Assembly (NCBI GenBank): GCA_050246635.1
Contig: JBFWVR010000005.1
Location: 43,095 to 107,094, forward strand
Direction of reading: 5' to 3'
DNA: 64,000 bases
DNA from: Vicinamibacterales bacterium
GTDB taxonomy: Bacteria; Acidobacteriota; Vicinamibacteria; Vicinamibacterales; UBA2999
Position numbers and translations under genes: made by a program. Position 1 is the stretch's first letter; each line of letters begins with the position of its first letter. The notes under the pieces are model-generated. The model did not search any database and was not told where the DNA came from. It worked only from the letters and a program-made list of their open reading frames with translations. This document shows, piece after piece, positions 56,355 to 59,440 of the stretch.

Positions 56355-57173
56355 CTAAAACCTCACGATGCCCGCGTAGTACCACCCCTTGAACTTCAGG
56401 TTGCCGCTGTCGAGGTCGACGGCGTAGCTGACGTCCACCGAACGGTAGCCGACCTGGGCCCCGAAGTTGTTGGAGAAGTTCACGACGGAGTAGAAGTCGT
56501 AGTCCAGGTACCGTCCTTCGTACTCCTCGGACAGGTTGTCCGGGATCTTGAAGAACGTCACCTCGCCGCCGATGGCCAGGGCCGGCAGGACGTACCCGCG
56601 GCCGACCAGCCCGAAGGTCGGGATGGGCGCGACCTGGTTGGTGAACTCCTCGCCGATCGGGCTGTTCAGTGACACCTTCACGTCCGAGTACTTCAGGTCC
56701 GCGAGCACCCCGAGGTAGCCGCGGTCCCGGTAGATGAAGTCGTACTCGTACCCGAAGCGGTAGGTCTTGAGGTCGGCGCTGGTGGCGACGGGCAGGCCGA
56801 CGGAGTAGCGCTGGCCGTTGAACACGAACTCGCGGGTGAGCGTGGTCTCGGCCTCGTACTTGATCGGCAGGTAGTGGAACCGGAACTTGTGCCGGCGGGC
56901 GGGCCTGAGCACGAGCCGGACTTCCGGGATGCGCTTCTGCTCGACGCCGAGGTCCTCCACCAGGTCCACGTCGTCACCCACGATGCCGAGTGACTCGCTG
57001 CTGATGATCAGGAACGGCTCCGGGTTCCAGTAGGCGAAGGCCGCCTCGATGTGGAACGTCTCGCCGACCGCGGGGTCGGGCGGGGCCTGGAACTGGGCGG
57101 CCGCGGGCGCCGCGGTGCCCCAGACGATGCTGAGGACCGCCGCCGCACGGATCAGGTACACACACGTCCGCAT
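56355..57173 (-). CDS. Outer-membrane beta-barrel protein
   Basis: Signal peptide; alternating aromatic beta strands; C-terminal FKGWYYAGIVRF (BamA-type terminal Phe). Confidence 0.8.
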   Translation of the reverse strand: MRTCVYLIRAAAVLSIVWGTAAPAAAQFQAPPDPAVGETFHIEAAFAYWNPEPFLIISSESLGIVGDDVDLVEDLGVEQKRIPEVRLVLRPARRHKFRFHYLPIKYEAETTLTREFVFNGQRYSVGLPVATSADLKTYRFGYEYDFIYRDRGYLGVLADLKYSDVKVSLNSPIGEEFTNQVAPIPTFGLVGRGYVLPALAIGGEVTFFKIPDNLSEEYEGRYLDYDFYSVVNFSNNFGAQVGYRSVDVSYAVDLDSGNLKFKGWYYAGIVRF

Positions 57174-57305
57174 AGACGCCATCTCTGCCCCGGGATGTCC
57201 GATCGTTGAATTCCGCACCCGCAGGGAAACGCGGGCGTCCGGCCCTGGGGGAGGGCCGCCAGCCTGACTGGGAGGACAGGCTCAGCAAGGGTAGCACGGA
57301 CGACA

Positions 57306-57441
57306 GGGAATTCAGAATCAAGAAAACGGAATCAAGAAAGGAATTCTGAATTCGCAAGTTGGGAGGGGAGCGACCAGGGCGCTCGTGTTCTCGTCGGTGT
57401 GAATGCCCTTCTTGATTCCGTTTTCTTGATCCTCAATTCTC
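57306..57441. repeat. Long imperfect inverted repeat built from gaatcaagaaaacg units
   Basis: gggaattcagaatcaagaaaacggaatcaagaaaggaattc ... ttcttgattccgttttcttgatcctcaattctc; same unit at 63445-63548. Confidence 0.75.
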
Positions 57442-57496
57442 TGACCGTGTACGTGCGACAGGCCGGACTCAGGTCCGGCCTGTCGCGCGTATGCGG

Positions 57497-57619
57497 TCAG
57501 AGCTTGCGGGTCCGCTCCAGGACCCGTGGGTTCGCCCCTCAACAGCCGGGGGGCTCGGCGTAGGCGAGTTCGAAGAACTGCCGGACGCCGGCGAGGAACC
57601 GACGGAGCCAGTCGCGCAT
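57497..57619 (-). CDS. Candidate CstA-associated small selenoprotein MRDWLRRFLAGVRQFFELAYAEPPGCUGANPRVLERTRKL
   Basis: ATG 3 bp after the cstA stop, AGGAAGG RBS, TGT-TGA (Cys-Sec?) with TGA at 57541-57539, SECIS-like hairpin 12 nt downstream. Confidence 0.6.
57507..57526 (-). promoter_or_regulatory. Candidate bacterial SECIS element
   Basis: CGGGTCC-TGGAGC-GGACCCG: 7-bp perfect stem with a G-containing loop starting about 20 nt after the in-frame UGA. Confidence 0.55.
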
Positions 57620-57622
57620 CGT

Positions 57623-59440
<1,818 letters not shown>

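Follow-up and report, generated by a model that had tools for sequence, protein, structure and literature searches.

What happens when a ribosome reaches the in-frame TGA of a very short open reading frame (ORF) that sits directly behind a transporter gene, cstA, in a soil acidobacterium? The locus in question lies on the minus strand of the window analyzed here, a stretch of 64,000 nucleotides (nt) from a Vicinamibacterales bacterium (contig JBFWVR010000005.1, positions 43,095 to 107,094, of GenBank assembly GCA_050246635.1). The micro-ORF starts with an ATG at position 57619, 3 nt past the cstA stop. Its first part, MRDWLRRFLAGVRQFFELAYAEPPGC, comprises 26 codons and closes with Cys-TGA (TGA at 57541-57539); the frame past this TGA encodes GANPRVLERTRKL and then meets a second TGA at 57499-57497. 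The initial annotation of this DNA took the first TGA for a selenocysteine (Sec, U) codon beside Cys in a 40-residue protein with an amphipathic N-terminal helix, a reading that is well supported computationally by a sequence family, by covariation in a downstream hairpin, and by the predicted helix. We put at roughly three in four the probability that the micro-ORF encodes a micro-selenoprotein of about 40 residues with a G-C-U-G-like center, decoded by SelB at a selenocysteine insertion sequence (SECIS). The elements themselves, from the AGGAAGG ribosome-binding site and the two TGA codons to the perfect CGGGTCC/GGACCCG stem with its TGGAGC loop 12 nt past the first TGA, had been described exactly, to the base (Table 1). 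The remark that the ORF track misses the gene needs qualification, since the 26-residue ORF (57539..57619) does appear in the ORF listing at a minimum of 20 residues.

The organism decodes UGA as Sec, as follows from its selA and selB genes, a selD that itself contains Sec, a tRNA-SeC, and formate dehydrogenase-type genes bearing TGA. Its genome (5.64 Mb in 57 contigs, 98.8% complete) was checked for selA, selB, selC, and selD, as the initial annotation had proposed, and all four are present. Profile matches exceed the curated cut-offs for selB (344.8 bits), selA (541 bits), and selD (358.9 bits), and ARAGORN calls a tRNA-SeC with anticodon tca. The selD gene has an in-frame TGA at the classical SCAG-U-ASK site, and two formate dehydrogenase-type genes also carry one. 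At the first of these, fdhA, the TGA is followed by 11 to 12 nt, a 7-bp stem, and the loop GGUCU; at the second, by 12 nt, a 6-bp stem, and the loop GGGCU. The fdhA genes of seven relatives share the layout of the fdhA gene here. Across the order, 301 of 401 genomes (75%) have a selB match above the cut-off. Among the 29 inspected genomes that hold the micro-ORF, all carry Sec genes; selB is found at E <= 1e-89 in 27, and the two others, G065 (74% complete) and G102 (90% complete), have pieces of selA at the ends of contigs, beyond which selB would fall.

The combination of micro-ORF, TGA, and hairpin is more than chance, because it recurs in 39 distinct sequences and its stem covaries. A DNA search of 61 related genomes, together with tblastn, found the same ORF, with a TGA in the same column and a similar downstream peptide, in four other genomes. 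When 401 genomes of the order were searched in six frames with a profile reading through stops, there were 57 matches in 54 genomes, 40 of them with exactly one TGA. Thirty loci were read: 28 are canonical, one (G352) is a variant, and one (G150) is a nonmember, not counted as a holder because its TGA lies in another column. Within family f4, 11 of 118 genomes had a match, all with TGA. A phylum-wide sample of 401 genomes gave matches in 8, all within the order (families f1 and f4), and none outside it. Of 29 hits to a strict DNA pattern, searched in a single genome for each prokaryote species, 26 are Acidobacteriota or Vicinamibacterales metagenome-assembled genomes (MAGs) by title; a hit labeled 'Betaproteobacteria' has the same micro-ORF peptide as the G291 locus, and two hits in MAGs labeled otherwise (L120 and L122) were dropped as chance matches. 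Pooled and de-duplicated, the family has 39 distinct copies, all from Vicinamibacterales-type Acidobacteriota, and so far appears confined to this one order of soil Acidobacteriota.

These counts have a defined scope. Rows L079 and L082, which lack the pattern, were removed beforehand, and L128, with PPGC-TGA and a canonical hairpin yet an unlike N terminus, stands outside the 39. The copies in G380, G377, G375, G340, G370, G372, G207, G214, and G250 lie outside the inspected set. The genome tallies may include the unpublished genomes G026, G308, and G342, of which G026 has no match. At the margin of the family, the G352 variant (L079) ends PPCG-TGA and has another hairpin 12 nt past the TGA, with a 5-bp stem (CCCCG/CGGGG) and the loop GUC; this hairpin is similar to the one that follows the TGA of selD in the window's genome. 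In G016, a second weak match (C69:22753-22833, E 5.6e-4, one TGA) lies beside the canonical copy and may be a paralogue.

All 39 copies have TGA as their first stop. This uniformity is not mere stop-codon usage, since the second stops of the same copies use all three codons (TGA 16, TAG 15, TAA 8). A metagenome scan in which the codon at the TGA column was left free returned 18 hits; leaving out L152, L156, and L162, which are not of the family, the 15 members have TGA in 12 cases and TGG in 3, with no Cys codon and no other stop. The codon before the TGA is TGT in 35 copies, TGC in 1, AGT in 2, and TCC in 1, so that a U precedes the TGA in 37 of 39, and a G follows it in 36 of 39. Cys is thus written TGT in 35 of 36 cases in genomes of about 70% G+C, and both AGT Ser codons also end in T; given this preference and the following G, the U-UGA-G context seems to be selected. 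The genome's own Sec sites likewise have U before the TGA in selD (ggt TGA g), fdhA (att TGA c), and the second fdh-like gene (act TGA c), whereas the fdhA genes of the seven relatives read ata TGA, with no U.

The hairpin is, on comparative evidence, a selected RNA structure with the geometry of a SECIS. It is present in both the minimum free energy and the centroid folds (stem 57526-57520, loop 57519-57514, stem 57513-57507), and RNAalifold independently predicts the same helix. In 20 aligned copies, 98.6% of 140 cells of the stem are paired, and in four of the seven pairs both partners have changed (19 cells). The covariation score was 0.461, compared to 0.156 in shuffles, none of 500 of which scored as high, and partners slid by 1 to 3 columns pair in only 22 to 49% of cells. 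In 19 of these 20 copies the loop begins with U-G-G-A, and in G001 with G-G-G-A, leaving G-G-A invariant. Within the window's genome, 321 hairpins combine a TGGA-type loop with a stem of at least 6 bp; a TGA stands at this offset in one, the present locus. With its 12-nt spacer, 7-bp covarying stem, and G in the apical loop (UGGAGC), the element parallels the fdhA-type sites of this genome and the seven relatives.

One might ask whether there is a gene here at all, as opposed to an RNA element, conserved where cstA ends, in which a frame happens to be open. The product is very short, and the stem does explain part of the amino acid conservation past the TGA: S/V and D/T residues swap together (S/D, V/T) because they encode the two sides of stem pairs. 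The part ahead of the TGA, however, behaves like coding sequence. Its 26 codons vary mostly at codon positions 1 and 3 (entropies 1.43, 1.01, and 1.34) with the amphipathic pattern kept, the start codon lies at a similar distance in most copies, and 14 of the 36 copies that can be assessed are not located near cstA. We regard a purely RNA element as scarcely credible.

That ribosomes pass the TGA is suggested by three signs: the position of the second stop, a Cys form, and a Trp form. The second stop lies exactly 13 codons past the TGA in 17 of 39 copies (TAG 8, TGA 7, TAA 2) and 12 to 14 codons past it in 21 of 39, across several families and mostly after L, I, or F; the chance of a first stop falling in that three-codon slot is about 6%, estimated from base composition. 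All 39 copies have at least 12 sense codons beyond the TGA. The protein profile search was exhaustive over 1.84 billion representative proteins; a homologous-protein search from family alignment A1 gave 1 protein among 3 candidates. Library protein P0006, of 36 residues, aligns with the G131 copy at 75% identity and without gaps. At the TGA column it has Cys (PPCNC versus PPAC-U), and it ends at the same position; its R-to-S and L-to-M changes fall on stem positions and, judged from the peptide, would break 2 to 3 of the pairs. Weak stop-free matches from the order search were considered as further Cys forms and set aside: 16 of 17 inspected look spurious, being out-of-frame G+C-rich DNA or parts of larger proteins, and the 17th is the G352 variant. 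The Trp form consists of P0014 and three metagenome contigs of one lineage (L154, L159, and L168), which have TGG where the others have TGA. Their frame stays open, giving an ORF of 65 residues, and their hairpin is bulged and still foldable.

These observations bear on the simplest alternative, namely that only the 26-residue peptide ending in Cys is made. The TGA would then be a true stop, and the hairpin would serve as a ribosome pause or leader-peptide switch, an mRNA stability element, or a processing site. Eleven public proteins are indeed called as ending ...EPPGC or ...EPPGS, which we regard as gene calls cut at the TGA. The protein-like part of the product is its N-terminal 26 residues, the tails vary in 18 of 39 copies, and the conserved L-L-Y-x-E-P-P-G-C before the stop could act as a nascent-peptide signal. 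A true stop would leave it unexplained, however, that TGA is never exchanged for TAG or TAA in 39 copies that use all three codons at their second stop, that the second stop keeps its position across families, and that the frame continues unchanged beyond this codon in the Cys and Trp forms. The hairpin also has the spacing of the fdhA SECIS and no T tract, and every inspected holder has Sec genes. We therefore consider the 26-residue peptide as sole product unlikely.

A different possibility is that the hairpin drives read-through of the UGA without Sec, a near-cognate tRNA inserting, for example, Trp, so that short and long isoforms arise without selenium. The natural TGG lineage with its still foldable hairpin would fit such a view, as would the U before (37/39) and G after (36/39) the UGA, which suggest an effect of decoding context. 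Set against this are the usual marks of a Sec site, in that a Cys adjoins the UGA in 36 of 39 copies and a Cys replacement exists in P0006. In addition, the genome's own SECIS elements have a matching geometry, and Sec genes are present in every holder inspected. Such read-through of UGA, driven by a hairpin, is not known to us from bacteria, and we judge it very unlikely here.

Several observations nonetheless weigh against Sec insertion. The tails are long (18 to 78 codons) and unconserved in 18 of 39 copies. Those of the g13 type show no conservation among G013, G140, and the TGG lineage, so there is no evidence of a functional long tail. Replacement by Trp, in one lineage and three contigs, is not expected if Sec chemistry is essential. 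Cys26 is itself replaced by Ser in 3 of 39 copies (L073, L076, and L067, from G279, G243, and G245, with PPSS-TGA or PPGS-TGA), in which Sec would stand alone. The codon periodicity of the 12-nt spacer is weak (entropies 1.07, 0.93, and 1.12). P0006, the sole Cys form, is known as a protein only; its DNA was looked for and not found, and no TGC or TGT stands at the TGA column in the genomes searched (401 of the order, 118 of family f4, and 401 of the phylum). Given how widespread selB is in the order, and since related genomes do not count as independent cases, the co-occurrence of the micro-ORF with the Sec trait is only suggestive. Finally, no Rfam SECIS family matched positions 57200-57700 at E <= 10, the only matches being of generic microRNA models on the longer hairpin described below. 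This last point carries little weight, since Rfam misses two of the three genuine Sec sites of this genome: fdhA is recognized by RF01989 at 38.9 bits, below the gathering threshold, and the selD and second fdh-like sites are missed. The comparison of homologues that the initial annotation had suggested thus came out in its favor in one respect and not in another: the TGA, the downstream frame, and the hairpin with its compensatory changes are kept, and no genome copy has a Cys codon in place of the TGA. The homologues do not simply end at the TGA with nothing conserved downstream, nor does the genome lack Sec machinery.

We imagine that Sec decoding would proceed as follows. Translation would start at the ATG at 57619, probably coupled to the end of cstA translation. 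The 7-bp hairpin, 12 nt past the UGA at 57541-57539, would then recruit SelB with its Sec-tRNA(Sec), and selenocysteine would presumably be inserted beside Cys26. Translation would continue through the codons of the hairpin and stop 13 codons past the UGA.

The recoding event might also matter in itself, as a selenium-gated translational switch. Without Sec-tRNA and SelB, the ribosome would release the 26-residue, Cys-ended peptide; with them, it would read through to the second stop. Here that stop falls within the foot of a 30-bp hairpin, and a ribosome reaching it could influence what becomes of the mRNA or how the next gene is expressed. The TGG lineage that keeps the hairpin, the Ser-for-Cys copies, the strict U-UGA-G context, and the many copies away from cstA would be in keeping with a function of recoding as such, but we find such a switch distinctly unlikely.

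In the micro-selenoprotein itself, an amphipathic helix at the N terminus would lead into a P-P-G-C-U-G turn, followed by a short tail of basic character. AlphaFold2, run on family alignment A3, gave a mean predicted local distance difference test (pLDDT) score of 66.9, with the helix (residues 2 to 17) at about 80 and the tail at 56 to 57. The helix is strongly amphipathic, with a hydrophobic moment of 0.64 and a mean hydrophobicity of 0.03. The sequence of the basic tail is largely dictated by the RNA stem, which its codons encode. At the center, G-C-U-G in this copy, the vicinal Cys-Sec pair would be able to form a selenenylsulfide. One can speculate from such presumed redox chemistry that the protein has a redox or metal-sensing role.

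Is the micro-protein, then, a partner of CstA, as initially proposed? Counting a copy as downstream of cstA if it lies within about 1 kb on the same strand, 22 of the 36 assessable copies qualify and 14 do not. More precisely, of all 39 copies, 14 are directly behind cstA, 5 follow within 151 to 350 nt, 3 are one gene further along, 14 lack cstA over at least 1.5 kb of upstream sequence, and 3 are not assessable. In the three copies with an intervening gene, that gene is Trp-dioxygenase-like. Neighbors of the copies away from cstA include an ABC transporter, DUF3179, a pyridine-nucleotide disulfide oxidoreductase, TonB-type receptors, and a hydrolase. In G001, of the same genus as the window's genome, the micro-ORF (L059) adjoins a divergently oriented ABC transporter gene, similar to one that the window has upstream of cstA; cstA is missing from between the two, and copies of it lie on other contigs. 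Gene position is what suggests a CstA partner; it agrees with the proposal at the majority of loci and not at the 14 others, and in G001 the ORF is retained without cstA beside it. Among the genomes compared, the association with CstA is common and not obligatory, and the micro-protein would be a putative partner. In G140 (L080, 1-1482), the micro-ORF follows a DUF3179 gene and a pyridine-nucleotide disulfide oxidoreductase gene lies downstream; DUF3179 is among the predicted selenoprotein families in a 2026 review table (PMC13188914).

The layout of the locus in the window is given in Table 1. The cstA product scores 590.6 bits with NCBIfam NF011590, under the model cut-off of 1188. Contigs from two other runs (X2, and X4 from another study) match the stretch identically where they cover it; X4 ends at 57646.

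Table 1. Features of the cstA and micro-ORF locus (window coordinates)
Feature	Position	Strand	Basis
cstA, CstA-family pyruvate/peptide transporter, 605 amino acids	57623..59440	-	Pfam PF02554, E 5.1e-214
cstA stop TGA	57625-57623	-	sequence reading
AGGAAGG, Shine-Dalgarno-like, within cstA 3' end, 7 nt 5' of micro-ORF ATG	57627..57633	-	putative function
Micro-ORF read through: 26 codons, TGA (proposed Sec), 13 codons, TGA stop; 40 residues	57497..57619	-	translations; 39-copy family
TGT-TGA, Cys26 codon and proposed Sec27 codon	57539..57544	-	TGA in 39/39 copies
12-nt spacer from TGA to hairpin, codons G-A-N-P	57527..57538	-	length constant in 20 aligned copies
Proposed SECIS hairpin, 7-bp stem CGGGTCC/GGACCCG, loop TGGAGC	57507..57526	-	fold and covariation
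Second in-frame stop TGA, 13 codons past first TGA	57497..57499	-	same distance in 17/39 copies
Long hairpin, 30-nt arms, 90% complementary, 4-nt loop; 5' foot holds second stop	57439..57502	-	fold; putative role

The long hairpin that begins at the second stop has the shape of a terminator and no T tract. A consensus terminator scan of 57150-57750 found no terminator-like site, and no T run follows either hairpin. The segment from the end of the micro-ORF through the long hairpin folds far better than its shuffles (z of -7). The long hairpin was not seen among the relatives whose loci were read. Beyond it, an AT-rich inverted repeat at 57304-57443 has 43-nt arms that are 88% complementary and 54 nt apart. 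This genome has at least 60 occurrences of the arm, spread over more than 20 contigs and often arranged as inverted pairs 100 to 170 nt apart, and the repeat looks like a dispersed intergenic element of the miniature inverted-repeat transposable element (MITE) or repetitive extragenic palindromic (REP) type. The same-genus genome G001 has a similar TTGATTCTGGATTC stretch downstream of its micro-ORF. Further downstream in the window is a 287-residue ORF (56355-57218, minus strand) with no Pfam match. In several relatives, a gene for an outer-membrane-like protein with a signal peptide lies 3' of cstA and has its own extended -10-like promoter. A stretch shared downstream in several relatives, TGnTAT(T/C)CT, was considered as an RNA motif and discarded; it reads as the extended -10 promoter of the next gene.

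If our reading is right, the micro-ORF represents an undescribed selenoprotein family, among the shortest, which gene callers and databases cut at the Cys or miss entirely. Its SECIS would lie inside a 13-codon tail, making it a compact natural test case for Sec decoding in Acidobacteriota. Our literature search found no description of the family. Table 1 of a 2026 review, which covers 119 prokaryotic selenoprotein families and subfamilies, lists KCU-star/DUF466 and nothing like the micro-ORF family (PMC13188914). Selenoprotein genes with a CU dipeptide are described in a preprint as often truncated at the CU in databases.

How does the micro-ORF compare with known systems? Its signal resembles the formate dehydrogenase SECIS (Rfam RF01989, SECIS_3) in the order of UGA, about 12 nt, a G+C-rich stem of 6 to 8 bp, and a small G-containing loop. 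It differs in that the loop is UGGAGC rather than (A/G)GUCU, and RF01989 gives no match at E <= 10. The proposed adjacent Cys-Sec pair is shared with SaoC, SaoL, HgcA, MbdU, and the C terminus of thioredoxin reductase, where it is a proposed selenenylsulfide redox or soft-metal site (PMC13188914, Table 1; PMC4607533); in animal thioredoxin reductase, adjacent Cys-Sec forms the selenenylsulfide redox center (PMC4607533). Unlike those CU selenoproteins, the micro-protein matches none of their NCBIfam models, and taxa, sizes, and neighborhoods differ. A relation to the small cory-CC-star proteins was also considered and dropped: neither the 26-residue nor the 41-residue reading has an NCBIfam match, and there is no CC-stop end.

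The closest parallel is with the DUF466 or KCU-star proteins (PF04328 Sel_put, NF033934), which are likewise small, are encoded beside a gene of the CstA family, as 22 of the 36 assessable micro-ORF copies are, and carry vicinal Cys-Cys or Cys-Sec. In E. coli, YbdD and YjiX (DUF466) are described as ending Arg-Cys-Cys and as encoded next to CstA and its paralogue, and ybdD is needed for CstA-dependent pyruvate uptake (PMC5847655). DUF466 proteins of Campylobacter and some Helicobacter are reported to have a Cys-Sec end directly before the stop, with the SECIS downstream of the TGA. As initially noted, the micro-protein is shorter and its pair internal: DUF466 proteins have about 60 to 70 residues and end ...CC or ...CU right before the stop, whereas the micro-protein has 26 residues up to the Cys of the pair and at least 12 codons, including the hairpin, after it. 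The micro-ORF peptide has no Pfam or NCBIfam match at E <= 10, PF04328 and NF033934 included, and a six-frame search with PF04328 matched none of 61 relatives while the E. coli and Corynebacterium glutamicum controls were matched. Within the phylum, only 3 of 201 genomes have a PF04328 match above the cut-off, and when the family was compared by hhalign with three DUF466 proteins from Acidobacteriota, the probability was 3.2%. By these profile comparisons, the two families are not detectably related; they are alike in motif and, frequently, in position. With the micro-ORF, small proteins that have a vicinal Cys-Cys or Cys-Sec pair would be found behind a CstA-type transporter for a second time, apparently independently, which strengthens the idea that such pairs matter for these transporters.

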